Assembly: GCF_000020025.1 (NCBI RefSeq)
Contig: NC_010628.1
Location: forward strand, 6,630,001-6,662,000
Source of the DNA: Nostoc punctiforme PCC 73102
GTDB lineage: Bacteria; Cyanobacteriota; Cyanobacteriia; Cyanobacteriales; Nostocaceae
Reading direction: 5' to 3'
Length of the DNA: 32,000 nucleotides
Within the stretch, counting starts at the first letter, position 1, and each line of letters starts with the position of its first letter. The position numbers and the translations under genes were made by a program. Under the pieces are notes generated by a model. That model was not told where the DNA came from and searched no databases. It worked only from the letters and a program-made list of their open reading frames with translations. This document shows, piece by piece, positions 2,911 through 32,000 of this stretch.

Positions 2911-4299
2911 ATGCATTTCAATCAAACTAACCATCATAAAAAAAATATTTTGGTGGTCGATGATACCCCAGATAATTTGAGGCTTTTATCGGCAATGTTG
3001 ACTGCACAAGGTTTTGAAGTTCGCAAAGCTTTAAACGGTAAAATGGCACTCACTGCATGTCAAATGGTTTTGCCGGATGTGATTTTGCTGGATATCAATA
3101 TGCCAGGGATGGATGGCTATCAAGTTTGTCAACAACTGAAGGCTGACGATAAAACTTGTGAAGTCCCAGTGATTTTTATCAGCGCCCTGGATGATGTTGT
3201 AGATAAAGTAAAAGCTTTTGATGTTGGTGGTGTAGATTATATTGCCAAACCTTTTCATGGGGCAGAGGTTGTGTTGCGAATTGAAAATCAGATTAATTTA
3301 CGTTTGCTCCAAGTTAGACTGCAAGAAAAAAACTTTTTATTACAAGAAGCTCTTGATAACTTAAAATCTGCTCAAGTTCAACAGATTCAGAACGAAAAGA
3401 TGGTGGCGCTGGGGCAGTTAGTGGCTGGGCTGGCTCATGAAATTAATAATCCCATCAGTTTTATTTATGGTAATCTCCAATATGCTGGTCAATATGTGCA
3501 AGACCTAGTAAATCTAATTGAAGTTTATCAACAGGAATATCCTAAACCTACGCCAAAAATTCAGCAAATATCCCAAGATGTAGACCTAAATTTTATGATT
3601 AAGGATCTACAAAACCTCATAGGTGCAATGTATAGAGGCTCCGATCGCATTCGGGAAATTGTGCTGGCGCTACAACACTTTTCTCGTCATGACGAAGCAG
3701 AGATGAAGCGGGTAAATATCCATGAAGATATCGAAAACACTTTGGTGATGTTACAATATCGACTCAGGGAAGCAGCAGACCGTCCCGCAATTATTGTAGT
3801 GAAAGATTATGGTAACTTGCCCCTAGTTACTTGTTATGCGAGTGAACTAAACCAAGTATTTATGCATTTATTGAATAATGCTATCGATGCAATAGAAGAG
3901 AAAGTGGGGAATCAATCTTTTAATCCTTATTCCCTAATACCACTTGACGGGAGTCGCTCTACGTGGGAGGACACGCCAGTTCCTGCACTTGGAGAAACCT
4001 CAAAACCGCAGTGGCTCTTCCCTACTCCCCAGATTAGGATTCACACAGAGGTGACAGACTTAAATACGATCAAAATTGCGATCGCAGATAATGGTCCTGG
4101 TATAGAAGAGTCGTTGCGATCGCGTTTATTTGACCCATTTTTTACCACAAAACCTGTGGGCAAAGGTAGTGGGCTAGGATTATCTATTAGCTATCAAATT
4201 ATCGTCCAAAAACACCGAGGAAATATTACCTGCACTTCTTCTGTTGGGCAAGGAGCAGAGTTTGCGATCGAAATTCCCATTGGGCAACCTGAGCATTAG
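2911..4299 (+). CDS. Hybrid REC-histidine kinase (N-terminal receiver, H-box dimerisation region, HATPase_c)
   Basis: 462-aa ORF. The REC is paralogous to the one at 803. The H-box is AHEINNPISFIYGNL, the N-box LLNNAIDA, the G1 DNGPGI and the G2 GKGSGLGLSIS. Confidence 0.9.
   Translation: MHFNQTNHHKKNILVVDDTPDNLRLLSAMLTAQGFEVRKALNGKMALTACQMVLPDVILLDINMPGMDGYQVCQQLKADDKTCEVPVIFISALDDVVDKVKAFDVGGVDYIAKPFHGAEVVLRIENQINLRLLQVRLQEKNFLLQEALDNLKSAQVQQIQNEKMVALGQLVAGLAHEINNPISFIYGNLQYAGQYVQDLVNLIEVYQQEYPKPTPKIQQISQDVDLNFMIKDLQNLIGAMYRGSDRIREIVLALQHFSRHDEAEMKRVNIHEDIENTLVMLQYRLREAADRPAIIVVKDYGNLPLVTCYASELNQVFMHLLNNAIDAIEEKVGNQSFNPYSLIPLDGSRSTWEDTPVPALGETSKPQWLFPTPQIRIHTEVTDLNTIKIAIADNGPGIEESLRSRLFDPFFTTKPVGKGSGLGLSISYQIIVQKHRGNITCTSSVGQGAEFAIEIPIGQPEH
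3920..4030. repeat. In-frame extra segment (about 31 codons) in the ATP-binding domain of the kinase, probably derived from a dispersed repeat
   Basis: The N-box to G1-box spacing is 65 aa here against 34 aa in the paralogous kinase at 27456..28901. The extra peptide NQSFNPYSLIPLDGSRSTWEDTPVPALGETSKPQWLFPT is low-complexity. Boundaries are approximate. Confidence 0.4.
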
Positions 4300-4912: not shown

Positions 4913-6133
4913 GTGAGCGATCTGTTCGTCCCTTTACAATCTCTCAAACAAGGTGACTGGTTCAAGCTCATCTGCGGAGCTAGCTTCCAGCATTTGCCGG
5001 CAGTCAGAAATTTAACGTTAGCCTATACTTTGGCGGGCGCTGACTGCATAGATGTTGCAGCTGATCCAGCAGTGATTGCAGCAGCGCAAGCAGGGCTACA
5101 AGTAGCTAAAACTCTAGCTAAAGATGCCCAAAAGCGAGGCTTTGACTACAAAGGCAACTTACCCTTTTTAATGGTCAGCCTGAACGATGGAGAAGACCCC
5201 CATTTTCGCAAAGCAGAATTTAATCCTACTGAGTGTTCTAGAGACTGTCCTAGACCCTGTGAACGGATTTGTCCGGCACAAGCAATCGTGTTTGACAGTA
5301 TCAAAGATGACTTTTCGGGAGTAGTATCCGAAAAGTGTTATGGCTGCGGTCGTTGCATCCCAATTTGTCCTTATGGTATAATTTATACAGCTTCATACGT
5401 GGCACCGCCAGGAGCGATCGCGCCATTAGTAATGTCAACAGGAGTAGATGCCGTAGAAATCCATACACAAGTAGGGCGGTTGGCAGAATTTCAGCGATTG
5501 TGGCAGGCAATTTCACCGTGGGCCGATCAATTAAAGGTACTAGCCATCAGCTGTCCCGATGGCGAGGGGATGACTGATTACCTAAGAGCAGTGTATGACC
5601 TGATTTCCCCACTCAAAAGTGCTTTAATTTGGCAAACCGACGGTCGTTCTATGAGTGGCGATATTGGCGATGGCACTACAATAGCCGCAGTGAGATTAGG
5701 GCAGAAAGTTTTGGCAGCGAAATTACCGGGATATGTGCAGTTAGCAGGCGGCACAAATAGCTATACCGTTGCTAAGTTAAAGGCAGTGGGACTGTTAAAC
5801 AGTGCTGAGTTCCGAGTTATGAGTGCTGAGGAACACTGTATTACTCAGCACGGGCTAAACCTTAGCTATCCGCTAACAGCACAGGCTAAACGCCCCGCTA
5901 CCACTAACAGCACTCAGCACTCCCACATCGCCGGGGTCGCCTACGGTAGCTACGCCCGTGTACTGCTGTCACCAATTCTCGAAAAGTTAGAGAATAAGGA
6001 GGTAAGTAACACCAATATGAAGACGACTGTTTGCCTAGAAGAAGATGAAGTATTACTTTGGCAAGCTGTAGAACTTGCTCATTCTCTCGTTTCCCAGATC
6101 AAGTCATCTCAGAGAAGGGAGAGTGAGCATTAA
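4913..6133 (+). CDS. ldpA: LdpA-like iron-sulfur protein (light-dependent period modifier, circadian input), GTG start
   Basis: 406-aa ORF. The N-terminus GDWFKLICGASFQHLPAVRNLTLAYTLAGADCIDVAADPAV and the two Cys clusters CPRPCERICPAQAI and CYGCGRCIPICPYG match my recollection of the LdpA family. It carries an extra repeat-derived C-terminal segment. Confidence 0.75.
   Translation: MSDLFVPLQSLKQGDWFKLICGASFQHLPAVRNLTLAYTLAGADCIDVAADPAVIAAAQAGLQVAKTLAKDAQKRGFDYKGNLPFLMVSLNDGEDPHFRKAEFNPTECSRDCPRPCERICPAQAIVFDSIKDDFSGVVSEKCYGCGRCIPICPYGIIYTASYVAPPGAIAPLVMSTGVDAVEIHTQVGRLAEFQRLWQAISPWADQLKVLAISCPDGEGMTDYLRAVYDLISPLKSALIWQTDGRSMSGDIGDGTTIAAVRLGQKVLAAKLPGYVQLAGGTNSYTVAKLKAVGLLNSAEFRVMSAEEHCITQHGLNLSYPLTAQAKRPATTNSTQHSHIAGVAYGSYARVLLSPILEKLENKEVSNTNMKTTVCLEEDEVLLWQAVELAHSLVSQIKSSQRRESEH
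5801..5925. repeat. In-frame repeat-rich segment inside ldpA (AGTGCTGAG direct and inverted copies plus a 31-nt tandem duplication)
   Basis: AGTGCTGAGT occurs at 5801 and GAGTGCTGAG at 5821. The inverted copy CTCAGCAC occurs at about 5844 and 5913. Tandem units are GGGCTAAACCTTAGCTATCCGCTAACAGCAC and AGGCTAAACGCCCCGCTACCACTAACAGCAC. The translation is SAEFRVMSAEEHCITQHGLNLSYPLTAQAKRPATTNSTQHS. Confidence 0.6.
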
Positions 6134-6289: not shown

Positions 6290-8023
6290 ATGACGATTAC
6301 AGACGATCTCCAAAAGTTATTAGACATTTTGCCCCAAGACCTGCAACAAGTACTAGAGAGTCATCCCAAACGAGATAGTTTAGTAGAAGTGGTCTTGGAT
6401 TTGGGTCGTCGCCCAGAGGCTCGCTTTCCTAATCAAGCTGAGTATCTGAGCGAAATACCCGTTACTCAAGAACAGATAGATGATTGCATTCAACGAGTCG
6501 GAATTTTTGGCGGAGATAATCGAGCAGGAATTGAGCAAACTTTGCATCGGATCAGCGCGATCCGCAACCGTACTGGTAAGATTATTGGCTTGACCTGTCG
6601 CGTTGGTCGGGCGGTATTCGGAACCATTGGCATGATCCGCGATTTGGTAGAGACTGGTAAATCGATTCTCATGCTCGGTCGTCCAGGCGTGGGCAAAACT
6701 ACTGCCTTACGAGAAATTGCCCGTGTATTGGCAGACGATCTGCATAAGCGAGTGGTGATTATTGACACCTCCAACGAAATCGCTGGAGATGGTGATGTTG
6801 CCCACCCCGCCATTGGTCGCGCTCGGCGGATGCAAGTGGCTCATCCAGAACAACAGCATCAGGTGATGATTGAGGCAGTGGAAAACCACATGCCAGAAGT
6901 CATTGTCATTGATGAAATTGGCACGGAACTAGAAGCTTTAGCGGCTCGTACTATTGCTGAACGGGGCGTACAGTTGGTAGGTACTGCCCACGGGAATCAG
7001 ATCGAAAATCTGATTAAAAACCCTACCCTGGCTGATTTAGTTGGGGGTATCCAAGCTGTGACTTTGGGAGATGACGAAGCCAGACGGCGAGGCTCTCAAA
7101 AGACTGTTTTGGAGCGGAAAGCCCCTCCTACCTTTGAAATTGCTGTGGAAATGTTGGAACGCCAACGCTGGGTAGTACACGAAAGCGTTGCTGACACAGT
7201 AGATAATCTGCTGCGCGGTCGTCAGGCTACCCCACAAACGAGAACCGTTGATGACCAAGGCAAAGTTGCAGTTACAAGGCAATTAGCTGTTGTTAACGGT
7301 CGCGGTGGACAGTTAGGGACAGTGGAAGAATCTTTCCCACCGGCACGAGCGTCTAATGGCTGGCGTTCTTCTGGACAAATGGTTGCACTGCCACAATTGC
7401 CTGTAGAACGGGTGACTGGACGTAGTGAGTTTGATCGATTGCTGGATGAATCTTTCAATTATTCTGAGAGCATTGATTTAGATGCTGCAACTAGACAGCC
7501 AGGGCCCAATGGTGAAGATTTGCCACTGCACGTTTACCCTTATGGCGTTAGCCGCCATCAACTAGAACAGGTAATTAGCGTGCTAACTTTACCCGTGGTA
7601 TTGACAAAAGATATAGATAGTGCTGATGCAATTTTAGCACTGCGATCGCACGTCAAGAACCACGCCAAATTACGCCAAATGGCGAAAGCTCGTCATGTAC
7701 CCATTCACATGATTAAGTCCAGCACCATTCCGCAAATTACCCGTGGCTTGCGGCGGTTGCTGAACATGGACGACCCAGAAATGACCGATGACCTCGAGCT
7801 GCAACTGTTTTTGCACAGTGGTAGCGATGATGAGATGGATGCCTTGGAAGAAGCTAGACTTGCTGTTGAGCAAATTGTGATTCCTAAAGGACAGCCAGTG
7901 GAGTTATTACCGCGTTCTCCCCAAGTCCGCAAAATGCAACATGAGTTGGTAGAACATTATCGCCTCAAATCGCATAGTTTTGGCGAAGAACCAAATAGAA
8001 GATTGCGGATTTATCCGGCGTAA
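6290..8023 (+). CDS. Ycf45/SpoIIIAA-like AAA ATPase with C-terminal R3H nucleic-acid-binding domain
   Basis: 577-aa ORF. Walker A is GRPGVGKTT and Walker B VIVIDEIG. The C-terminal R3H-like motif is LLPRSPQVRKMQHELVEHYRLKSHSFGEEPNRRLRIYP. Confidence 0.8.
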   Translation: MTITDDLQKLLDILPQDLQQVLESHPKRDSLVEVVLDLGRRPEARFPNQAEYLSEIPVTQEQIDDCIQRVGIFGGDNRAGIEQTLHRISAIRNRTGKIIGLTCRVGRAVFGTIGMIRDLVETGKSILMLGRPGVGKTTALREIARVLADDLHKRVVIIDTSNEIAGDGDVAHPAIGRARRMQVAHPEQQHQVMIEAVENHMPEVIVIDEIGTELEALAARTIAERGVQLVGTAHGNQIENLIKNPTLADLVGGIQAVTLGDDEARRRGSQKTVLERKAPPTFEIAVEMLERQRWVVHESVADTVDNLLRGRQATPQTRTVDDQGKVAVTRQLAVVNGRGGQLGTVEESFPPARASNGWRSSGQMVALPQLPVERVTGRSEFDRLLDESFNYSESIDLDAATRQPGPNGEDLPLHVYPYGVSRHQLEQVISVLTLPVVLTKDIDSADAILALRSHVKNHAKLRQMAKARHVPIHMIKSSTIPQITRGLRRLLNMDDPEMTDDLELQLFLHSGSDDEMDALEEARLAVEQIVIPKGQPVELLPRSPQVRKMQHELVEHYRLKSHSFGEEPNRRLRIYPA

Positions 8024-20899: not shown

Positions 20900-21226
20900 T
20901 CAGGATGTAGAAGATGTAGAAGCATCATCTCGATCAAACAGTTCTAACAACCCAATGGTGCCTACAAAAAAAGTATAAGTGGCATATCGTATTGGCATCT
21001 TTTTTCTTGAAGGTGCATAAAAAGCTGCTACAATAGCTTCGATAAAATGGCACGTTATGGCAAAACGCTCAATCCAAAAAATTGGATTAAGGCTGCTGGG
21101 AATATTACTATTAGTTAGTAATGCATAAATATTCCATGATTCTAATCCAATTGCGCTGGATATAAGAACTGTAGATATAATTTTTACCATTGTAAAAATT
21201 TTCCTCTTTATAAGTTTTAAGTTCAT
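20900..21226 (-). CDS. Hypothetical small membrane protein
   Basis: 108-aa ORF with an alternative start at 21190 (MVKII). It has three hydrophobic segments. I recognise no family. Confidence 0.45.
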   Translation of the reverse strand: MNLKLIKRKIFTMVKIISTVLISSAIGLESWNIYALLTNSNIPSSLNPIFWIERFAITCHFIEAIVAAFYAPSRKKMPIRYATYTFFVGTIGLLELFDRDDASTSSTS

Positions 21227-21651
21227 GCTTTTCGCAAAACAATTGTTGAAAATTCTCTACAAGACTCGATGAAGTAACAGATAAGTTTATCTGTGAGAAA
21301 CTACGCAAAAAATATCTCAAACTCTTATTTCTCGGTGTTCTCTGTGCCTAGTTTTTCTTTTACTCATGCGTAAATCTTATGTGTGTTATCTGAAATTCCC
21401 CTTAATTCAATCAATCTTATATCATAATTTCCATTTATTTTTGTAAAAGCCTATAAAAAAAAATTGGCATGGTGTATTTAATTCTGCCATACCCGTAAAC
21501 CCTATGAGTAATGAAAATTAATTTACCAGATATTTAAAAAATGATAAAAGTGTGGAATAATGCATTGGTGATAAATTTAGTCGAAATAAGAGTCATAAGT
21601 CAGGAGCCAGAATACCCTTTCAGAGAAGCAAGCTACAGAATAAATTCTGTA

Positions 21652-21721
21652 ACGACACTTCGACTTCGACAAACTCAGTGCATCGCTAGCTGATAGCGCA
21701 GTGTAAAGCCTGCGTCATAGC
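21652..21721. repeat. Fragmentary relative of the 20763 repeat family
   Basis: GTAAAGCCTGCGTCATAGC (21703-21721) matches the reverse complement of 20818-20836 at 18 of 19 positions. The adjacent CACTTCGAC and ACTCAGTG blocks resemble other modules of the family. Confidence 0.4.
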
Positions 21722-21830
21722 AATTCTTAAAGAGTGTCTTAATTCTGACCTGAGCTAACTGAAACGTCTCCAGCTTGACTTCTAAATTCTTCTTCAATCC
21801 CCTCTAGATTTTGATAAAAAATGAAAAGCT

Positions 21831-22040
21831 ATGATTGCTCAACATTACAACTCAATTCACGTTGAAAATGACTTGCTTCAACAAATCCAAATTAAAGAAA
21901 ATCAGTTAAGAATTGCACAAGAATCTAATATGATTCATGTAGCAGAAGCACTACAGAGTCAGTTATTAAAGTTGCAGTGTCAATTATCAGAGCCGCAAGA
22001 CGTTGAAGTCCAAGCATTGATGAGTTTGCTAGACGAGTAG
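21831..22040 (+). CDS. Hypothetical 69-aa protein, coiled-coil-like
   Basis: ORF only, in an AT-rich region, with no recognised motif. Confidence 0.3.
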   Translation: MIAQHYNSIHVENDLLQQIQIKENQLRIAQESNMIHVAEALQSQLLKLQCQLSEPQDVEVQALMSLLDE

Positions 22041-22205
22041 AATTGTAACTTTTTGTTACAAAAAATATTTAAAGCACAAAAACTCTATTTGTGGAAAGCA
22101 GAGTGAAGTTATTGTGATGCCTGAAAGTGCTATTTATGCGCTGTAGCTCAAAGCGAACTAAAGTATCAGTATCATAGAATCACAATACTTCCGACTTAGA
22201 TAACA

Positions 22206-22340
22206 TATAAGGCTCAGATTTGATTTTTGCGAAACTGGTAGAACTCAAAGAAGCTTTTTTTCTGGTGCCTCTTGCCTGTCCACACAAGTAAGTATGGCTA
22301 CACCATGCTGCGCGAATAGAAATTAAAGCTGACGGCTATA
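22206..22340 (-). mobile_element. MITE-like dispersed repeat, copy C (inverted orientation)
   Basis: The reverse complement aligns end to end with copy A: ATATAGCCGTCAGCTTTAATTTCT..GTAGCCATACTTACTTGTGTGG..AGGCAAGAGGCA..CTTTGAGTTCTACCAGTTTCGCAAAAATCAAATCTGAG. It abuts the stop codon of the ORF at 22341. Confidence 0.6.
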
Positions 22341-22649
22341 TTAGGGTTTTTGCTGCGTAGGTGGTCTTTTAATCTGCTGTACTGACTCAATCTTAAGAAC
22401 AGGCTTAATTGAGCGCAGTTGCCTTTGCCTAAGAATTTGAATTTCTCTCTCAATCGAATCTTTTCCTTGTCTAAAAAAGTCTTGAGAATTATATGGAACT
22501 AAGTCACGGGATAAACTTTGAGCTTGTGCAGGAGTCAAACTAGGAAGGGGTTGTTCTGCATTGGCAGAAGTTTGCACAGCCAGCAAAAAAGCTGTTGAAA
22601 TCAGCAAGAGTTGGATTTTTATACATCTAGTTAATATCAGGTTTAACAT
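22341..22649 (-). CDS. Hypothetical secreted protein, possibly a 3'-truncated gene
   Basis: 102-aa ORF with signal peptide LLLISTAFLLAVQTSANA. The TAA stop lies exactly at the junction with MITE copy C. Confidence 0.5.
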   Translation of the reverse strand: MLNLILTRCIKIQLLLISTAFLLAVQTSANAEQPLPSLTPAQAQSLSRDLVPYNSQDFFRQGKDSIEREIQILRQRQLRSIKPVLKIESVQQIKRPPTQQKP

Positions 22650-22800
22650 GATTGATACATCTGTTGTGTAACTGCTGCTTCAAACCATTTTCTGTTGGTC
22701 TTACTATAAACAAGGTACACTTATTGGCTTGTTAATTACCTCCCGCAAATGGGTGAATTAATCAGTTAAACTACCTTATTAAATATTTTGAACTAGCTGA

Positions 22801-22923
22801 TATAGGAATCAACTTTGATTTTTGTTCGCGCATACCTACTTGTGTGGTAGGCAAGAGGCAAGAAGAAAGAAGGCTTTTTGAGTTGTAAGGAGTTTTTTCA
22901 CGCAATCAAATATAAGTCCTATC
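22801..22923 (+). mobile_element. MITE-like dispersed repeat, copy B
   Basis: Shares both termini and the AGGCAAGAGGCAAG..GAAGGCTTTTTGAGTTGTAAGGAGTTTTTTCACGCAATCAAATATAAGT block with copy A. It lacks two internal segments present in A. Confidence 0.65.
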
Positions 22924-23280
22924 TTATCCAAGGTTCGAAATAGGAAAAAGTTCTGTTAGGTTGGGTCGCACTCTTGGGAATAATACTACTTGGGCGATAG
23001 CCTCAATATACCTCAGTGATACTGCTGTATTATATACTTCTTGTCTGTAACAGCTAATACTAAATCATGAAATTGTATTTTATACAGGTATTGTTGGTCA
23101 AATTTAGACAATATCAACAGAGATATTGGCTGAAACATGGTTATTCTATGTTTTATGCTTGCTAATTGTTAAATTATATAAATTTAATTTATACTAAAAT
23201 ATATCAGTATTTTAACTGTTGTCTTACCTGTTAATACTTACTTAATATGTAGCACAATCTTTTTAATTATCTTAGCCATT

Positions 23281-23574
23281 GTGAAATCTCTTCTACAGAC
23301 TTACTTAGAACAAGAAATTTGGATATTAGTACGAGAAAAGTGGTATTTCGCCACAATTATTGGAGTTTGGGATGATTTGTTATGGTTTAAACATAGAACT
23401 TACAACAAAGATACAGAAGAGGATACCCTCTGGGAAATGGTTGTAAAAATCAGTGAAGTAGTTGCTATTGATAAAGTTAGGTCTGTTATTAGTAGAAAAC
23501 CAGACGTGCTTATTTCACGGCTACTAGAAACTGAGCAAGGCACAAACGATTATCATCAAGATCATGAACATTAA
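23281..23574 (+). CDS. Hypothetical 97-aa protein (GTG start)
   Basis: ORF only, AT-rich. A 9-bp perfect hairpin GCTTGTCTC / GAGACAAGC at 23601-23639 follows it. Confidence 0.35.
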   Translation: MKSLLQTYLEQEIWILVREKWYFATIIGVWDDLLWFKHRTYNKDTEEDTLWEMVVKISEVVAIDKVRSVISRKPDVLISRLLETEQGTNDYHQDHEH

Positions 23575-23760
23575 TTAATAGCTTAATAGTAAAAATACTT
23601 GCTTGTCTCCTACATTCACTGATAAAACTTGAGACAAGCGGTATAAATCAGTAAGCTAAGAGAGTAAATATATTCACACAACGGAGGTTTAATAATAATC
23701 TGATAGACTATCTTAAATTTGAAATTATAAAAGCTGGTAGCTCAGGGCTGATAACTAAAT

Positions 23761-25431
23761 ATGAGTGAAGCCTTATTCTGTATCGAAAATCTGCGAGTTG
23801 CCTATCCTCAACGGAGTGGAGAAGAGGCAAGCTGGGCGGTTGATGATGTATCTTTCACCTTGCAACCAGGTGAAAGAATGGGATTGGTGGGAGAGTCAGG
23901 TTGTGGTAAGTCAACTATCGGGCGGGCAGTAATGCGTTTACTACCAGCCTCTAGTTGTGTTGAGGGAAAGGTGACATTTCAAGGACAGTCGGTGCTTGAC
24001 TTGATGCCTAACCAGTTGCGGAAATTTCGAGGAGAGGCGATCGCCTTAATTTTTCAAGATCCCATGACACGCCTCGATCCGTTGATGACGATTGGTAAGC
24101 ATTGTATCGAAACTCTTCAGGCGCACTCACCACAATTATCAACGCGGGAAGCCAAAGAAAAAGCACTTGCTACTTTGGCGAAGGTAAATATTCCCGCTAG
24201 TCGCTGGAATCAGTATCCCCACGAATTTAGCGGTGGAATGCGCCAACGGGTTGCGATCGCTTTAGCTTTACTCCTCAACCCCAAGTTAATTGTTGCCGAT
24301 GAACCCACCACCAGTTTAGATGTCACCGTCTCCGCGCAGATATTGCAAGAATTAACTCGCCTGTGCGGTGAAGAAAACATGGGATTGTTGCTGATTTCTC
24401 ACGATTTAGCAATGGTGGCTGAGTATTGCGATCGCATTGGCGTGATGTACCAGGGCAAAATGGTCGAAATGGGTTCTACAGAAACCGTCTTTAGACAACC
24501 TCAACATGAATACACGCGATCGCTCTTAAAAGCAGCTTTACACATTCAAGCAGTAAACGATGATGGAGAATTGATAATTGCCAACGACTCAGAAAAGCAA
24601 TTACCGATTATTAATAAGCAATCTCCAATTTTGAGTATTACAGAACTCAAGCAATACTACACCATAGAACCTAACTTTATCGAACGACTGTTTAACACAC
24701 AAGCGCAGACAATTAAAGCAGTAGATGGTATCAACCTGGATATTTATCCAAGAGAAATTCTCGGCTTAGTCGGTGAATCAGGTTGCGGTAAAAGCACACT
24801 ATCACGAACAATCCTGCAACTAATTCGTCCCACCAGTGGCAAAGTTAAATTTTTAGGACAAGATTTAACTACACTGTCGCCTCAAGAAATTCGCTCCTCA
24901 CGGCGACAAATCCAAATGGTTTTTCAAGATCCTCATGCTTGTCTCAATCCAGCGATGACTGTGGGACAAAGTATAGCCGATCCTTTATTTATCCACAATT
25001 TAGCCGATCTTGTTAAGGCAAAAGAACAGGTTTTGTGGATGCTAGAGAAAGTTGGGTTAACACCCTCAGAAGTATATTATGAGCGTTATCCATCAGATTT
25101 ATCTGGGGGGCAACAGCAAAGAGTTGCGATCGCTCGTGCTTTGATTACTCACCCTAAACTTTTGATTTGCGATGAACCTGTGAGTATGTTAGACGCAAGC
25201 GTGCAGTCGCAAGTACTAGATTTGATGTTGCAATTAAAAGAAGAATTTGAGTTAACTTATCTGTTCATCACTCACGATCTCTGGTTAGCTAGATTTTTGT
25301 GCGATCGTATTGCCGTGATGAATGGTGGCAAAATTGTCGAACTCGGTCTAACAAAAACTATTTTTGCCAATCCTCAGCACCCTTATACCAAAACACTACT
25401 AGCTGCTGCCCCCTTACTAGCACGCGCCTAA
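23761..25431 (+). CDS. ABC transporter ATP-binding protein with two fused NBDs (oligopeptide/dipeptide/nickel importer ATPase type)
   Basis: 556-aa ORF. Walker A occurs twice (GESGCGKST), as does the signature (FSGGMRQR, LSGGQQQR) and Walker B (LIVADEPT, LLICDEPV). The C-terminal motifs QPQHEYTRSLL and NPQHPYTKTLL are typical of DppD/OppF-like ATPases. Confidence 0.9.
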   Translation: MSEALFCIENLRVAYPQRSGEEASWAVDDVSFTLQPGERMGLVGESGCGKSTIGRAVMRLLPASSCVEGKVTFQGQSVLDLMPNQLRKFRGEAIALIFQDPMTRLDPLMTIGKHCIETLQAHSPQLSTREAKEKALATLAKVNIPASRWNQYPHEFSGGMRQRVAIALALLLNPKLIVADEPTTSLDVTVSAQILQELTRLCGEENMGLLLISHDLAMVAEYCDRIGVMYQGKMVEMGSTETVFRQPQHEYTRSLLKAALHIQAVNDDGELIIANDSEKQLPIINKQSPILSITELKQYYTIEPNFIERLFNTQAQTIKAVDGINLDIYPREILGLVGESGCGKSTLSRTILQLIRPTSGKVKFLGQDLTTLSPQEIRSSRRQIQMVFQDPHACLNPAMTVGQSIADPLFIHNLADLVKAKEQVLWMLEKVGLTPSEVYYERYPSDLSGGQQQRVAIARALITHPKLLICDEPVSMLDASVQSQVLDLMLQLKEEFELTYLFITHDLWLARFLCDRIAVMNGGKIVELGLTKTIFANPQHPYTKTLLAAAPLLARA

Positions 25432-25512
25432 CTCAACAAAGTGAGGAGTTATGAATTACTAACTCCCCACTACTAACTCGTGTACAGACGCGATTAATCG
25501 CTTTTCTAACTC

Positions 25513-26454
25513 CTAATTCTCTTCCCTCCCCTTAAGCAATTTAGTTGCTTCTCCACTCGAAGCATATAGTTCAACGAATCTTTTAAATAGCAATGCAGTC
25601 TCGTGATTTGAAGCCCTGCTTAAGTGGAATAAACGCCCTATATTTTTATCCGCTAAAGCTCTTAAATAGGGCAAATCTTCAAATAGTGTCAAACAAGAAG
25701 CAAAATGCAATATTATTTGTAATAATGGCTTTGGCCACTCTAGGTCACTATATATATCTATAAAGAACTGATGTTCTGAGTCATTTAACGGAAAAGCATT
25801 AAATAAAACAACTATCCTTTTGTTATTGTAAACTGGAATGCTCAATTCAACGGTATATGGAGTATGTAATATTAAATCTACCTCCACAATCGGTTGCCGC
25901 CAAATTCTCAAAGGATTAGCTGGCGAGTCTAATATTGTTTGGAATTTGATTATTCCACCAGTGTTAGTGGGCTGAAATTGGCTAATTTGGAAAATTTTCA
26001 GGTTATTAAGGCTAAAATTATGAACTGTTTCTAAATGCTTTAAGTTCAATAGATGATAAATTTGGCAAAGATAAGGAAACGGTAAAATATACTCCTGGCT
26101 GATCATGTGGAGCTTTCTTACTTGAAGCTTATTCGCTTGAGTACGAGCGACATATTCTTGATATTGGCTGGCACCTAAATCATTACTGTTAAAGCTTTCG
26201 TTAGGCTTGAGATATAGCCAACTCACAAAAAAGAAAGAAGCTGTAAATAGCTGAAATAGTTCTATATAAGATAAATAGCCATCAGCAAATGCAGCGACAC
26301 TTCTATCGGTTATTCCAAAAAGCCAAGATGGAATACCAAATATCCAGATATTACTTTTAATTTGATCTATAAAAAGTGCTATTTCAACATTTGAGACATT
26401 CTTACCTTGATTTACACTTAATTCATCATTATTTTTTAGACAATTAGTAAACAT
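25513..26454 (-). CDS. Hypothetical 313-aa protein with hydrophobic N-terminal third; family not recognised
   Basis: A long ORF in AT-rich, HIP1-free DNA. Hydrophobic segments are IWIFGIPSWLFGI and LFQLFTASFFFVSWLYL. I can name no catalytic motif with confidence. Confidence 0.55.
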   Translation of the reverse strand: MFTNCLKNNDELSVNQGKNVSNVEIALFIDQIKSNIWIFGIPSWLFGITDRSVAAFADGYLSYIELFQLFTASFFFVSWLYLKPNESFNSNDLGASQYQEYVARTQANKLQVRKLHMISQEYILPFPYLCQIYHLLNLKHLETVHNFSLNNLKIFQISQFQPTNTGGIIKFQTILDSPANPLRIWRQPIVEVDLILHTPYTVELSIPVYNNKRIVVLFNAFPLNDSEHQFFIDIYSDLEWPKPLLQIILHFASCLTLFEDLPYLRALADKNIGRLFHLSRASNHETALLFKRFVELYASSGEATKLLKGREEN

Positions 26455-27013
26455 AATATTTCTAATACACGTAATTTTAGTAATCTATAAAATCTATTTA
26501 TATTAATCTTAAATACCAATCTACAGCCATAACCTCTATCTTTAGCTGTATATACAAGTTGTATTTATTTCTATCCATTTAAAAGAAGTTCTTATGAGTA
26601 TGGCTAAAAATTCAATCCCTGATTAGATGTAATACTAAATTCTACGCATATCTAAATTCCTTGTAAGTCTTGCTCTTAAAGCATTTAATCTTGTATTCTC
26701 GGATTTATGTATAAATTAAAAGGAACAAATTTGCTAAAATCTTTCTGCTAGCTGAGTACAAAACATTAAACTATCTCACTTTTCCCAGTGGTATATAGAT
26801 AAAAAGTTTATTTTTCCTGACATAAGAAACTGATCTAAGTAGTGCGGTATGAAAAAATCAACCTATTTAAATATAAATAAATAGGATTTCTCTACCTATT
26901 GAGGTAACAGAGATATAGGTGCTTGTATATCAAAAGAGTATTTCTAACTAGTCAGAAAGACAAAATTATGTAAAAGCCCAGAACTGTGGATCTGAATGTG
27001 GAAAAGGTCATTT

Positions 27014-27039
27014 TCAGGGTTTCCCAAACCCTGATTTTT
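27014..27039 (+). terminator. Terminator-like hairpin plus T5 in a noncoding region
   Basis: Perfect 9-bp stem TCAGGGTTT / AAACCCTGA with loop CCC (27014-27034), followed by TTTTT (27035-27039). Confidence 0.45.
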
Positions 27040-27093
27040 CCATAGGCTGATTATCAATAGCTCTAAGTTAATGATAATCAGCCTATGGAAAAA
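27035..27093. repeat. Perfect 22-bp inverted repeat with 15-nt spacer
   Basis: TTTTTCCATAGGCTGATTATCA (27035-27056) is the exact reverse complement of TGATAATCAGCCTATGGAAAAA (27072-27093). Confidence 0.8.
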
Positions 27094-27455
27094 GCCAGGC
27101 TTTTTCGGGACTTGAGGACTTAGCGTGAAAAGTCAGAGCGGCAGAATCCCGGTGATATAAAGCTCTCGCTGTTATGAAAAGCCAGGGGATTTAAATGTAA
27201 CTAGTAGTTAATATTTGATATTGATTTGGGCAAAATGATCTCAGGCTCTTTCTATGACAGTAGATTTGGCCAAATTCTCTAATGATAACTTCTTCACCAG
27301 TAAATTCATAGATATGAGCAACTGTACCAAAACAAAATCTCTGCATGGCTATCGCATTTTCAAGTTACTTTACTCTGGTAATAGACAAATCAATTCACTG
27401 TATTGAGATATGGATAGCTTTCTCAATGTTTAAAACTAAAAAATAGTGAATCAGT

Positions 27456-28901
27456 ATGTCTATTGAAGAGTTAAATCAAGAGTTAACCAGATTACGTCAA
27501 TGCCTTCAGCAACTAACAACAGATAATGCTGAACTACGCCATGCAGTTCTAGAATATACTACTCAATTAAAGCAACACAAGAGCGAACAGCAAGCTGCAC
27601 TGCATGAGCGCCAACGGATAGAAGAACAACTGCAAACTACTCAACAGTTTCTGTATTCTGTGATTCAAACCATGCCTGTAGCAGTTTTTGTCAAAGATGC
27701 GGCTGATCTGCGAATTGTCTTATGTAATCAAGCCGCAGAAAAGTTAGCTGGTGTCAGTGCTGATGAAATTCTAGGAAAGAACGACTACGACCTATTTCCC
27801 AAAGAAGAGGCCGATTTTTTTACCCAACGAGATCACGAAGCACTTAATAGCAAAACATTATTAGAGATTCCTGAAGAAATAATTCGGAAAAAAAGCGGCG
27901 AAACCCGTATTTTACAGATTAAAAAAGCTCCAATTCTTGATTCTCAAGGTCAGCCTAAATATTTACTAGTGGTTCGAGACGACATTACAGAAGATAAACA
28001 AGCAGAAGCTCAACTCAAACAGCAAGCAATAGAACTAGAGCAAACTCTCAAAGAATTACAAAGTACTCAAGCTCAACTTATCCAAAGTGAGAAAATGTCG
28101 TCTTTGGGTCAATTAGTTGCTGGAGTTGCCCATGAAATCAATAATCCAGTAAATTTTATCTATGGCAATTTAACTTACGCTAACCAATATATCCAACAAC
28201 TACTGAATCTACTTCATCTTTACCGCATAAACTATCCCAATCCTGCTCTTGAAATTCAAACGACAATTCAAGAGATGGAATTCGATTTTTTAGTCGAAGA
28301 TTTGCTGAAATTACTCTCTTCAATGGAAGTCGGTGCTGAACGCATACAGCAAATTGTGGTTTCTCTTCGTACCTTTTCGCGGCTAGATGAAGCTGAGTTA
28401 AAAGCAGTGGATATTCATCAGGGTATTGACAGTACACTGAGTATTTTGGAGCATCGTTTGAAAACTAGAGCCAATCATGTCCAAATTCAGGTTGTTAAAG
28501 ATTATGACAATTTACCTTTAGTTGAGTGCTATGCTGGCCAGCTAAATCAAGTATTTATGAATATTTTGTCCAATGCAATTGATGCTTTAGAAGAGCCATT
28601 AATTCAAGGTAAACTCTCGCATAACCAGCCACAAATTCGCATTTGTACTCAACAACTGAATCCTCAAAAAATAGTTATTCGGATCATCGATAATGGCCCT
28701 GGTATTCCTGAACAAGTTAGACAAAAGTTATTTGATCCTTTTTTTACTACCAAAGATGTGGGGAAAGGTACTGGTTTAGGTTTATCAATTAGCTATCAGA
28801 TTATTACCGAGCGGCATGGTGGTTCGTTAGAGTGTGTTTCTTCTCTTGAAGGGGGAGCAGAACTTATTATTACAATTCCAGTTGCACAACCCAAACAGTA
28901 A
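27456..28901 (+). CDS. PAS-domain sensor histidine kinase (coiled coil, PAS, H-box, HATPase_c)
   Basis: 481-aa ORF. The PAS-like region runs from FLYSVIQTMPVAVFVKD to LLVVRDDITEDKQAE. The H-box is AHEINNPVNFIYGNL, the N-box ILSNAIDA, the G1 DNGPGI and the G2 GKGTGLGLSIS. It is a paralogue of the kinase core at 2911. Confidence 0.9.
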   Translation: MSIEELNQELTRLRQCLQQLTTDNAELRHAVLEYTTQLKQHKSEQQAALHERQRIEEQLQTTQQFLYSVIQTMPVAVFVKDAADLRIVLCNQAAEKLAGVSADEILGKNDYDLFPKEEADFFTQRDHEALNSKTLLEIPEEIIRKKSGETRILQIKKAPILDSQGQPKYLLVVRDDITEDKQAEAQLKQQAIELEQTLKELQSTQAQLIQSEKMSSLGQLVAGVAHEINNPVNFIYGNLTYANQYIQQLLNLLHLYRINYPNPALEIQTTIQEMEFDFLVEDLLKLLSSMEVGAERIQQIVVSLRTFSRLDEAELKAVDIHQGIDSTLSILEHRLKTRANHVQIQVVKDYDNLPLVECYAGQLNQVFMNILSNAIDALEEPLIQGKLSHNQPQIRICTQQLNPQKIVIRIIDNGPGIPEQVRQKLFDPFFTTKDVGKGTGLGLSISYQIITERHGGSLECVSSLEGGAELIITIPVAQPKQ

Positions 28902-28972
28902 TTTGGATTCAAAATGTGTGATTGCAGATATCTGGAACATAGCGAGGATTTGGGGGATTGGTCAACTAAAAT

Positions 28973-29028
28973 TCGCAATTTGCAATGACGCTCTTTCGTC
29001 GCTAACGCTGCGAAGATCGCAATTTGCA
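28973..29028. repeat. 12-bp perfect direct repeat TCGCAATTTGCA x2 flanking a short GC-rich spacer
   Basis: Copies lie at 28973-28984 and 29017-29028. The spacer contains the small hairpin GACG..CGTC. Confidence 0.5.
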
Positions 29029-29204
29029 GTTAAAAAAATATAAAGTTTATAAATCGAATCAGGAATAAGAATTTATTCTGTGTTATTTAGAACCAAGTTT
29101 CGCCTGAAAGCCTTTAATGCTCAGTATCTGAAAAATAAAATAATTTATCTATTTGATGCCAAGCTATCTGGGGGAATATAACGAAACTCCAGTGAGGTTA
29201 AGCA

Positions 29205-31064
29205 ATGGTTAATCAGACATACACAGTTGATGTCTTAGTTGTCGGTGGAGGAACCGGAGGCACTGCGGCTGCTATCCAAGCGGCGCGACGGGGAGCTAAA
29301 ACGATATTGGTGAGTGAATTTCCTTGGTTGGGGGGAATGCTAACTTCGGCTGGGGTGCCTGCACCCGATGGCAACGAATTAGAAGCCTTTCAAACGGGTT
29401 TATGGGGTGCGTTTTTGCAGGAATTGCGGCAACGGCAGCCCGGAGGATTAGATAACAGCTGGGTAAGCTTTTTTAGTTACGATCCTCAAATTGGGGCAGA
29501 GATTTTTGCAGATTGGGTGCAGGAATTACCAAATCTGCACTGGATTTCTGGACAAGTACCAATAGAGGTATTTCGCCAAGGCGATTCTATTACTGGTGTG
29601 CGCTTTGCTGATTTTGCTGTCATAGCCAAAATTATTCTCGACGGTACAGAATTAGGAGATTTATTAGCTTTAGCTGAGATACCTTACCGTTGGGGCTGGG
29701 AATTGCAATCTGAATGGGGAGAACCAAGTGCCCCAGTGGTTTTTAACTCTTTCACCCAGAAATATCCTGTGCAAGCGCCCACTTATGTAGTGATTATGCA
29801 AGACTTTGGTGATGCTATGTCTACGACATTCACTGAGCGATCGCGTAGCGTTTCGCAGAGAAGTCGAAGTGCGGGCGTAGCTGCGGCACCAGAAATTCCG
29901 GCTGCCCCTAACTATAATCTATCCCAGTTTACAGATGCTTGGGATGGCTATGGAGCAGAGACATTTTTGAATTATGGACGTTTGCCTGGTAATCGATTCA
30001 TGATTAATTGGCCAATCTGTGGCAATGACTACGGCCAAGGATTAGGGCGGCTGATAGAGTCAGATGTGTCCAGAGGTGAATTCATCCAAGAATCTCGCTG
30101 GCATAGCCAAAATTTTGCCCATTTTATTCAAAATCAGCTTGGTCGTCGCTATGGTTTAGCAGAAAAAGTATTTCCTCACGCCCCTACAGCTTTTGCACTG
30201 CATCCCTATTATCGGGAAAGCCGCCGCTTATTAGGACTAACTACTGTCCGAGAACAGGATATTTTGCCGATTGCTGGGGGAAGAGTTGCATCTATATTTA
30301 ATGATGCGTTCGTCCCTGGCGTTTGCGAAGCAATCGCAGTTGGTAACTACGCCAATGACCATCATTATCCTGGTGTTCAATTTTCACTACAACCAAAATC
30401 TATCCGTTGGGGCGGGCGTTGGACTGGAACACCCTTTACAATTCCCTACAGTTCCCTAATTCCAGCCACAACAGATGGTTTTTTAGTTTGTGAAAAGAAC
30501 ATTTCTGTCTCTCACATTGCCAATGGCGCTACCAGATTACAACCTGTGGTTATGGGCATCGGTCAAGCAGCAGGTATGGCGGCGGCGATGTGTGTTGAGT
30601 TAAACTGTCAGCCGAGGCATTTACCTGTTAGATCGCTGCAAACAGCTTTATTAGAGGATAATCGTTCAAAAACAGCAATTATTCCTTTCTTTAATCTTCC
30701 ACCCAATCGTTCGGATTGGCTGCACTGGCAACTGTATTACTTAAATAACCCACAAGCCTATCCAGATAGTGGTTATTGCCCTTGCCCATCGGAGAATGAG
30801 TACCGTGACTCTGCTTTTGATAAGGCATTAATTCGGGAAAGTAACTGTTTTCAAGGCATTTTCTCCCGCTTGGAACAGCAGGAATACAGATTTGCTGTCA
30901 CAGCGCCAACCGCATATCAAGGGCAAAATTGGCAGCTTGTGACTTTGCGATCGCATATCGACGAGCAATTACGCACTTACCCCCACGAACAATTAGTTAC
31001 ATTGTGGGGTCGTCAGAACCACTTTGGTAATTGGTTATTAGTCGAACATTTAAACGGAGGATAA
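29205..31064 (+). CDS. FAD-dependent oxidoreductase (FAD_oxidored family)
   Basis: 619-aa ORF. The N-terminal dinucleotide-binding motif is DVLVVGGGTGGTAAAIQAARRGAKTILVSE. SD-like GTGAGG lies upstream. The ORF contains an in-frame dispersed-repeat copy. Confidence 0.85.
   Translation: MVNQTYTVDVLVVGGGTGGTAAAIQAARRGAKTILVSEFPWLGGMLTSAGVPAPDGNELEAFQTGLWGAFLQELRQRQPGGLDNSWVSFFSYDPQIGAEIFADWVQELPNLHWISGQVPIEVFRQGDSITGVRFADFAVIAKIILDGTELGDLLALAEIPYRWGWELQSEWGEPSAPVVFNSFTQKYPVQAPTYVVIMQDFGDAMSTTFTERSRSVSQRSRSAGVAAAPEIPAAPNYNLSQFTDAWDGYGAETFLNYGRLPGNRFMINWPICGNDYGQGLGRLIESDVSRGEFIQESRWHSQNFAHFIQNQLGRRYGLAEKVFPHAPTAFALHPYYRESRRLLGLTTVREQDILPIAGGRVASIFNDAFVPGVCEAIAVGNYANDHHYPGVQFSLQPKSIRWGGRWTGTPFTIPYSSLIPATTDGFLVCEKNISVSHIANGATRLQPVVMGIGQAAGMAAAMCVELNCQPRHLPVRSLQTALLEDNRSKTAIIPFFNLPPNRSDWLHWQLYYLNNPQAYPDSGYCPCPSENEYRDSAFDKALIRESNCFQGIFSRLEQQEYRFAVTAPTAYQGQNWQLVTLRSHIDEQLRTYPHEQLVTLWGRQNHFGNWLLVEHLNGG
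29820..29893. repeat. Modular small dispersed repeat, in-frame copy inside the FAD oxidoreductase CDS
   Basis: It has a 28-nt exact match and an 18-nt 15/18 match to the ends of the intergenic copy at 20763-20861, in opposite orientation. The translation is STTFTERSRSVSQRSRSAGVAAAPE. Confidence 0.7.
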
Positions 31065-31093
31065 GAAGAGTTTATTTTCAGTAAAACAGAATA

Positions 31094-31128
31094 CTTTTTG
31101 ATTAATTATCCGGATATTAATCAAAAAG
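31094..31128. promoter_or_regulatory. 35-bp near-perfect palindrome centred on TCCGGA (DIF1-like hexamer), 44-78 nt upstream of the patX-like start codon
   Basis: The sequence is CTTTTTGATTAATTA-TCCGGA-TATTAATCAAAAAG. The arms match apart from a one-base indel, and TCCGGA lies at 31109-31114. Confidence 0.4.
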
Positions 31129-31171
31129 CTAAGTATCAGTGAAGTGGAGAGTTCCAAAATAGACATTTGCT

Positions 31172-31399
31172 ATGCGTGCTGCCATTTCACTTTTAGTATC
31201 GAGTCTGGTGTTCGGCCCCTTAGCTTCTAACTGCCAAGCAATGGTCAATCACTTATCAACTGGGCTACTTTCCACGCCTACTTCGGAACAGTGGCTCTCG
31301 GCAGCATCTGAACAAAATCCAGATGATGCGCCACGTCATCGCGGTAGTGGGCGTAGGGAAGTGACACAAAAATTCGGAAATACCTATGTTGTGGTTTAA
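31172..31399 (+). CDS. patX: PatX-like small secreted peptide carrying the HetR-inhibitor motif HRGSGR
   Basis: 75-aa ORF. It has a hydrophobic N-terminus (MRAAISLLVSSLVFGPLASNCQA), a Ser/Thr/Pro-rich middle, and RGSGR encoded at 31340-31354 with His before it. About 600 bp of ORF-free DNA follows to the window end. Confidence 0.6.
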   Translation: MRAAISLLVSSLVFGPLASNCQAMVNHLSTGLLSTPTSEQWLSAASEQNPDDAPRHRGSGRREVTQKFGNTYVVV

Positions 31400-32000
31400 C
31401 TACTGTAGGATAATGCCTGTTTTTCAAAAAGAACCAAAGTTCCAGAAAACACGATGTTATGCCAACATATTTGACACAGCTTTTCTGACAGAGATATATA
31501 CAGTTGACACGCGAAAATCTTCAGCGATCGCTTAGTATTTCAACTGCAAGCTTTGTATATCATTCGTTGGTCTTTTAATCTGGCGATCAAAACGCAAATA
31601 AAATTAAGTGTCTTGATCAACAGCATTAACAACTCCCAAAAGCTACATAACTGTTGCTTATATTCGGTCGGAAGCTCTGCATCTCAATCCTTAACGGCTC
31701 TAGAAATAGATGTTATTTAGACTATCAGTTAATCTAAAGCACGTCTAATTCAAACATTTTGCTTGCTAAGGAAATAGTCTTAAGGCAACTTCATTCACTT
31801 TATTCCCCAATATCTTTTCTTCTCATACATTGAGTAGCTGGCTTCTATATGAGCAACTAATGGGTCTTCACTTCGACGCGTGTTTAGCGTCCTTTACCTA
31901 AGCATAAAATCCCTTTCGTTCCATTTGAGCCTATCTAGGACATGGATTCGCACAAGTAGTATAGATTGATTGCACTTGGCAACAAATATTACTATTTATG

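Follow-up and report, generated by a model that had tools for sequence, protein, structure and literature searches.

Judged by its sequence, the gene at positions 31172–31399 (+ strand) of the DNA analyzed here is a genuine patX orthologue, already catalogued and annotated. This DNA, referred to below as the window, is a stretch of 32,000 nucleotides from Nostoc punctiforme PCC 73102. We put the probability at about 0.92 that the gene is the Nostoc patX orthologue encoding an RG(S/T)GR-type inhibitor of HetR, the heterocyst master regulator. The evidence presented here concerns the gene, its family membership, purifying selection, a conserved promoter, and a conserved genomic position. The gene itself is ordinary and already known, and there is nothing new in it: patX genetics were dissected in 2020 (PMC7761841), maturation in 2025 (PMC12756182), and the sigma factor of the promoter in 2026 (PMC13342950). 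What the analysis provides is a precise promoter annotation for this orthologue; a corrected rule, that the patX genes of heterocyst formers do not lie directly upstream of hetR and that the linkage is broken in this Nostoc lineage; and a conserved, patX-specific downstream element, the only part that might repay more work.

The ORF listing of the window gives an ATG start and 75 codons plus a stop, with the translation MRAAISLLVSSLVFGPLASNCQAMVNHLSTGLLSTPTSEQWLSAASEQNPDDAPRHRGSGRREVTQKFGNTYVVV. Residues 1–23 (31172–31240, + strand) form a predicted Sec signal peptide, based on hydropathy and family conservation. It consists of MR, a 16-residue hydrophobic core, and then NCQA ahead of the likely cleavage point; the site after NCQA and the identity of the final peptide are both likely assignments drawn from the sequence. 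Kyte-Doolittle means over 11 residues were 1.35–2.2 across residues 1–19 and went down to −2.3 at the motif. The predicted HetR-inhibiting hexapeptide, HRGSGR, is encoded at 31337–31354 (+ strand; residues 56–61), with 14 residues between it and the stop. The initial annotation had described just such a 75-aa ORF, hydrophobic at its N-terminus and carrying HRGSGR 14 residues from the stop, and the ORF listing and hydropathy profile confirmed it. Its further description of the middle as Pro/Ser/Thr-rich is fair but mild, the 32 residues concerned including 5 Ser, 3 Thr, and 3 Pro.

Assignment to the PatX family, also proposed in the initial annotation, was borne out by curated models and by an alignment of homologues. 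The protein matched the NCBIfam equivalog NF047413, “heterocyst-inhibiting protein PatX,” with 90.2 bits (E = 1.1e-25; the cutoff is 30 bits) over profile positions 1–68 of 69, and a public collection records PF28278 (PatX) for the exact 75-aa protein. A Pfam-A scan of the ORF with a copy that predates PF28278 gave no match, and the NCBIfam and precomputed Pfam matches were used instead. A homology search returned 114 proteins, every one of which carries PF28278; those with named sources were all from Nostocales, and many were labelled PatX in NCBI or UniRef. The ORF had been expected to be one that automated annotation usually misses. That expectation is out of date: besides the existence of the two PatX models, the identical 75-aa sequence has several NCBI accessions and the UniRef name PatX, and it is called on at least 119 contigs.

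When 23 members from about ten genera were aligned, the predicted signal-peptide segment proved to be the most conserved stretch of the family. Its core positions M1, R2, L8, V9, S10, L12, F14, G15, and L17 were invariant, as were P54, H56, R57, G58, S59, G60, and R61 at the motif, and the middle was variable. Thus HRGSGR, which contains the PatS-type pentapeptide RGSGR, was present in all 23 members. Some Nostoc and Desmonostoc PatX proteins (P0037, P0046, P0048, and similar) are longer, with 104–128 aa. They carry an insertion of 29–53 residues straight after the signal peptide, and their N-terminus and HRGSGR are unaltered.

A short ORF with a five-residue motif might be a chance or decaying ORF, or might belong to a relative of PatS or HetN instead of PatX. 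Shuffled windows contained a mean of 0.085 RG[ST]GR motifs, so a window of this size is expected to hold one by chance only occasionally, and we encountered one chance case: in L042 (557–670, − strand), RGTGR occurs within an N-terminal fragment of an FAD-oxidoreductase homologue, where GGGTGGT has become GRGTGRT. Therefore, RG[ST]GR by itself is not diagnostic. Across the six frames of the 32-kb window, however, the motif occurs once only, in patX, and the gene has much more than the motif. In comparisons with five Nostoc loci, the patX coding DNA had 0–1 differences per 228 nt, whereas the flanks of those loci were 94–98% identical. Seven codons differed from those of Nostoc sp. KVJ3 (PatX 99% identical), and in 6 of them the change was synonymous. 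This pattern of substitution indicates that the coding DNA is under purifying selection. Because this selection is joined by the full-length match to a curated model and by 114 homologues, we conclude that the gene is a bona fide patX orthologue; its syntenic position in nine genera (below) agrees with this. The ORF is real and not a product of chance, and we regard the alternatives in this paragraph as extremely improbable.

PatS and HetN themselves also fit poorly with a secreted 75-aa precursor. PatS is a peptide of 13–17 aa, and HetN is a short-chain dehydrogenase/ketoacyl-reductase-like protein of about 287 aa that carries RGSGR internally. PatS resembles PatX in being the source of a HetR-inhibiting RGSGR peptide, in its DIF1 promoter, and in its transcription in proheterocysts. 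It differs in having only 17 aa in PCC 7120, in lacking a signal peptide, and in that its precursor is probably cleaved in the cytoplasm; moreover, its RGSGR is at the extreme C-terminus, whereas the PatX studied here has a hydrophobic leader and 14 residues past the motif. HetN likewise contains RGSGR and inhibits HetR, but it shares neither sequence nor architecture with the 75-aa PatX, and the patX ORF had no dehydrogenase family match. HetN is expressed in mature heterocysts and acts in pattern maintenance (PMC7761841).

The promoter region was examined in 12 aligned patX upstream regions from nine genera. The hexamer TCCGGA, a DIF1 motif, was invariant in all 12, located 62–63 nt ahead of the ATG; in the window it lies 63 nt ahead, at 31109–31114 (+ strand). 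In 11 of the 12 it was followed 16–17 nt later by [A/C]GTA, represented in the window by AGTA at 31132–31135 (+ strand) after a 17-nt spacer. The published promoter recognized by sigma-HetZ has a −35 element T-35 C C G G A-30, a spacer of 16–17 bp, and a −10 element TGnA, with A tolerated at −13 (PMC13342950). The arrangement TCCGGA-17 nt-AGTA matches it, and we identify it as the predicted sigma-HetZ promoter of patX, with TCCGGA as the −35 and AGTA as the −10 element. Transcription would be predicted to start near 31144–31145, giving a leader of about 27 nt. The authors of that study reported that sigma-HetZ directly activates patX (PMC13342950), and the patX DIF1 promoter had earlier been found to give hetZ-dependent, proheterocyst-specific expression (PMC7377430).

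A repeat search also revealed a 35-bp palindrome at 31094–31128, with perfect 13-nt arms at 31094–31106 and 31116–31128. It is centered on the CCGG of TCCGGA, so that the arms bracket the −35 element. In Desmonostoc the arms are preserved by change on both sides; in the other genera only the outer T-tract (T5) and A-tract (A5) persist.

The expression pattern, export, processing, and HetR binding of this PatX are assigned by orthology with experiments in Anabaena/Nostoc PCC 7120. On that analogy, after nitrogen step-down the sigma factor HetZ, switched on by HetR, would transcribe patX in prospective heterocysts from the promoter at 31109–31135; in PCC 7120, patX is induced in prospective heterocysts 6–8 h after step-down (PMC12756182). 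The 75-aa precursor would then leave the cytoplasm by the Sec pathway by means of its N-terminal signal peptide. The signal sequence of PCC 7120 PatX drives Sec export, and deletion of the signal peptide abolishes activity (PMC12756182). The periplasmic peptidase PatP would trim the precursor to a short peptide containing HRGSGR; cleavage of the exported PatX precursor by this conserved peptidase (Alr1666) has been reported (PMC12756182). Finally, the peptide would spread along the filament, bind HetR in neighboring cells, and block its DNA binding, and those cells would stay vegetative. The corresponding hexapeptide of PCC 7120 PatX, HRGTGR, binds HetR and prevents it from binding DNA (PMC12756182). 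When PatS, HetN, and PatX are all missing from PCC 7120, differentiation becomes near-complete and lethal (PMC7761841).

The PCC 7120 gene, asl2332, is similar in both product and context. Its protein is built alike, with a hydrophobic N-terminus (a Sec signal in PCC 7120, a predicted one here), a middle part that varies, and H-R-G-(S/T)-G-R close to the C-terminus. The gene has a DIF1/sigma-HetZ promoter and lies between an FAD oxidoreductase gene and gifA-glnA. The proteins differ in that PCC 7120 PatX has 77 aa and RGTGR, whereas the protein encoded here has 75 aa and RGSGR.

We also considered that a true PatX-family protein might serve here mainly in HetR-independent signaling or in filament fragmentation through necridia. 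Such a role would be compatible with the finding that PatX transcriptomic effects in Leptolyngbya BL0902 looked largely independent of HetR (PMC11298460) and with the proposal that control of necridia is the ancestral PatX function (PMC12756182). Loss of patX alone leaves the PCC 7120 pattern normal when combined nitrogen is absent, which can be cited in favor of such a role but which is also explained by the masking of PatX by PatS and HetN. HRGSGR is nevertheless invariant across the heterocyst formers among the 23 aligned members, the heterocyst-specific sigma-HetZ promoter is invariant upstream of patX, and in PCC 7120 both the binding of the hexapeptide to HetR (PMC12756182) and the lethal differentiation of the triple inhibitor mutant (PMC7761841) count against such a role. 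A mainly HetR-independent role is therefore improbable, and inhibition of HetR remains our preferred reading.

The genomic position of patX is conserved on both sides. Its constant upstream neighbor is a gene for a 619-aa FAD-dependent oxidoreductase (29205–31064, + strand), which matches all2333 of PCC 7120 by position and whose stop lies 101–111 nt from the patX ATG in every Nostocales locus examined. The downstream side was followed on Logan contig L002, which is 100% identical to window positions 21172–32000 and continues 9.4 kb past the window. There, about 756 nt from the patX stop, a convergent gene encodes a 352-aa methyltransferase (L002 10985–12043, − strand). It is followed by gifA (IF7A; L002 12334–12534, + strand; 66 aa; NF052599, 118 bits) and glnA (L002 12666–14087, − strand; TIGR00653, 684 bits), all three genes lying beyond the window, and the last gene found after glnA was an allophycocyanin-beta-like (apcB-like) gene. 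The block FAD oxidoreductase >, patX >, (variable gene) <, gifA >, glnA <, apcB-like > was found in nine genera. Comparison with orthologues, suggested in the initial annotation, thus yielded both an invariant RGSGR in 23 members and a syntenic position shared across nine genera. In PCC 7120, the neighbors of asl2332 are all2333 in one direction and alr2331, asl2329, and alr2328 (glnA) in the other (PMC7761841), and the locus studied here is syntenic with it in the order glnA(alr2328)-asl2329-alr2331-patX(asl2332)-all2333.

In every Nostocales locus examined, gifA and glnA were 2–3 kb downstream of patX, so that there is a stable linkage between a patterning gene and genes of core nitrogen assimilation. 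What lies between patX and gifA varies, as a comparison of L002 with L090, L093, L214, L092, L091, and L215 showed. Nostoc, Cylindrospermum, and Sphaerospermopsis have the 352-aa methyltransferase gene there, and a gene for a DUF455 protein takes its place in Calothrix 7507, Desmonostoc, Fortiea, and FACHB-152; in Anabaena PCC 7108, Gloeotrichia, and KVJ3 none was called.

The initial annotation placed hetR just past the window on the + strand, interpreted the 600 bp of ORF-free DNA after patX as the long, multi-promoter hetR upstream region, and took a location immediately upstream of hetR to be part of the definition of PatX. That definition is reportedly due to Elhai and Khudyakov in 2018, the year in which patX was described. 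Extension of the contig did not reveal hetR: it was absent from the 32-kb window and from the 9.4 kb beyond it on L002, the downstream genes being those listed above. No match was obtained by tblastn in the window or in six loci with an exact PatX (10 kb on each side) with a HetR probe that was an approximate sequence, about 90–93% identical to real HetR proteins. Subsequent HetR searches, including that of the hetR loci below, used P0166, an actual HetR sequence from a database. In KVJ3, a close relative and the closest genome examined, one 4.03-Mb contig carries both genes, hetR at about 1.46 Mb and patX at about 3.52 Mb, a separation of 2.07 Mb.

To survey hetR loci more widely, we used 80 loci from 80 Nostocales species with 10-kb flanks; 75 of these had more than 2 kb of upstream sequence. 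None of the 75 had an RG[ST]GR ORF within 2 kb upstream of hetR. A match to the PatX profile within 10 kb of hetR was found in three loci only: in Umezakia and Chrysosporum patX is 7–8.5 kb upstream of hetR on the opposite strand, and in Aliinostoc it is about 9.6 kb downstream. The 10-kb flanks narrowly miss a patX at about 11 kb, and this was offset by scoring the FAD-oxidoreductase gene at the flank edge. That gene was present at the far edge, on the minus strand, in 18 of the 59 loci with a full 10-kb upstream flank, implying the same patX-hetR arrangement in them. In N. flagelliforme FACHB-838, a close relative (PatX 91% identical) which likewise has both genes on one contig, patX (42314–42541, −) and hetR (53841–54737, +) are 11.3 kb apart, separated by FAD-oxidoreductase, HTH, PIN, ADH, PHO4, and EamA genes. 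Nostoc sp. FACHB-152 has hetR on the strand opposite to patX, 9.7 kb upstream of it. On the evidence of these gene orders, loose patX-hetR linkage is common in Nostocales, its usual form having hetR 7–11 kb upstream and divergent.

The same comparisons suggest how this linkage was lost. In several Nostocales the order on the hetR side is hetR-EamA-PHO4-ADH-(HTH/PIN)-FAD oxidoreductase-patX (L217, L092, L007). In KVJ3 the ADH-PHO4-EamA-hetR block is intact but split from FAD oxidoreductase-patX, and in the window the hetR-side block is replaced, upstream of the FAD-oxidoreductase gene, by a PAS histidine kinase gene and a gene for a 313-aa protein (25513–28901). Together, the split in KVJ3 and the different upstream genes in the window indicate that an older loose linkage was broken by rearrangement in this Nostoc lineage. 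As a result hetR is unlinked here, with none present in the more than 31 kb before patX or in the 10 kb after it; the locus differs in this from the PCC 7120-like FACHB-152.

Direct adjacency of the two genes does exist outside this group. In the non-heterocystous Leptolyngbya sp. BL0902, patX is adjacent to hetR (PMC11298460). That pair (GFS31_32390/32400) resembles the gene studied here in having a PatX-type precursor behind a predicted DIF1 promoter, but hetR is immediately downstream and apparently cotranscribed (PMC11298460), which was not so in any Nostocales genome examined. The hetR upstream region is also long in Nostoc, with 1.8 kb free of genes in KVJ3, which speaks for a patX followed by a long hetR leader. 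The genes found on L002, the blank tblastn searches, the 2.07-Mb distance in KVJ3, and the count of 0 in 75 leave that reading with almost no probability. We conclude that the initial annotation carried the Leptolyngbya arrangement over to a Nostoc. Adjacency to hetR does not define PatX in Nostocales, asl2332 itself not being beside hetR (PMC7761841); its absence consequently does not count against membership in the family.

Because there is no hetR in the 9.4 kb beyond the window, the ORF-free DNA after patX is not the leader of that gene. This spacer separates two convergent genes by 756 nt and has conserved elements of its own. The statement that about 600 bp after patX are free of ORFs held up, in that 31400–32000 contained only ORFs of 55 aa or less, none of them conserved as protein. 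Small conserved ORFs were sought in the spacer as well and rejected: the similarity extended over all frames and both strands and was limited to close relatives. Since it is independent of frame and strand, we conclude that the spacer is non-coding.

Three features were recognized within or just beyond this spacer. The first is a short AT-rich hairpin followed by a T-rich stretch at 31451–31471 (+ strand). RNAalifold on sequences from seven genera predicted 8 pairs, mostly kept, with one pair changed on both sides. The predicted energy of −4.6 kcal/mol is weak, and the hairpin was not called by the terminator scan; tentatively, it may be a weak or leaky patX terminator.

The second is a conserved element of about 60 nt at 31484–31544 (+ strand), which is specific to the DNA downstream of patX and is the sole unexplained item at the locus. 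It is 93% identical between the window and Desmonostoc, compared with 79% for the surrounding spacer. An nhmmer search of 1.69 Mb of Nostocales loci located it exclusively on the patX strand, 78–101 nt past the stop codon of that gene. It was present in Nostoc, Desmonostoc, Calothrix PCC 7507, Cylindrospermum, Anabaena PCC 7108, Sphaerospermopsis, and Fortiea, and marginal in Gloeotrichia; the same program did not detect it in the PCC 7120-like FACHB-152, Umezakia, Chrysosporum, or Aliinostoc. Its presence thus distinguishes the locus studied here from the PCC 7120-like one. The element is single-copy in Nostoc, Desmonostoc, Calothrix 7507, and Fortiea. Tandem arrays occur in Cylindrospermum (4.8 copies with a 64-nt period and 97% matches; L089 6313–6619), Anabaena PCC 7108 (2.5 copies), and Sphaerospermopsis (3 copies), the other two arrays being at L091 6332–6511 and L216 10338–10529. 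The TAGTAT-like 3′ end is restricted to the final copy in the arrays of Anabaena and Sphaerospermopsis.

Several attempts were made to match the 60-nt element to known sequences. An Rfam search of the region from patX to glnA, with E values up to 1, gave only two sub-threshold chance matches (Bacteroides-1 and a plant miRNA). Inspection by eye for an NtcA box (GTA-N8-TAC), a HetR site, an HLR1/RpaB repeat, a Pho box, or a second DIF1 motif found none that fits. A stem that appeared conserved within the element (CAGTTGA/TCAACTG in Nostoc) is lost in Cylindrospermum and Anabaena, and the idea of a conserved RNA fold was dropped. When metagenomes were scanned with the pattern CAGARATAYANACAGTT, at least 120 loci were listed; none of those listed matched the profile of the element, and they are therefore regarded as chance matches.

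The third feature is an intrinsic terminator on the + strand at L002 10910–10935, equivalent to positions 32081–32106 of the window coordinates and thus just outside the window. It is strong, with a stem of 11–12 bp and a T-run, and lies 680–730 nt after the patX stop. It is kept, with compensatory changes in the stem, in four genomes: those of the window lineage, KVJ3, N. flagelliforme, and Cylindrospermum (with equivalents in L008, L217, and L089). The rest of the spacer, from 31545 to the end of the window at 32000 (+ strand), lacks protein-level conservation and runs on to this terminator; after the 60-nt element there are thus about 560 nt without ORFs, partly conserved, with the terminator at their end.

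A conserved + strand terminator at this position implies that some + strand RNA crosses the spacer. From the arrangement of these features, that RNA would be either a long patX 3′UTR or an independent non-coding RNA whose transcription the 60-nt element starts. We suggest, as a tentative idea that is rather less likely to be right than wrong, that the element, the ORF-free DNA, and the terminator form an undescribed patX-linked regulatory module. It could consist of an array of binding sites and a −10 box, TAGTAT, driving a non-coding RNA, or of a long regulatory 3′UTR. If such a module exists, it would tie heterocyst patterning to the neighboring gifA-glnA nitrogen-assimilation genes.

The remainder of the window gave a few additional observations. 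The 313-aa ORF at 25513–26454 (− strand) had no Pfam or NCBIfam match and was called in all related contigs. Positions 1–20612 contain no tRNA genes and encode ordinary cyanobacterial housekeeping and signaling functions. These include a response regulator with GGDEF and EAL domains (803–2638), a hybrid kinase (2911–4299), LdpA (4913–6133), and an R3H/AAA protein (6290–8023), together with ABC transporters, a pentapeptide-repeat protein, and an FrhB/FdhB-like protein.
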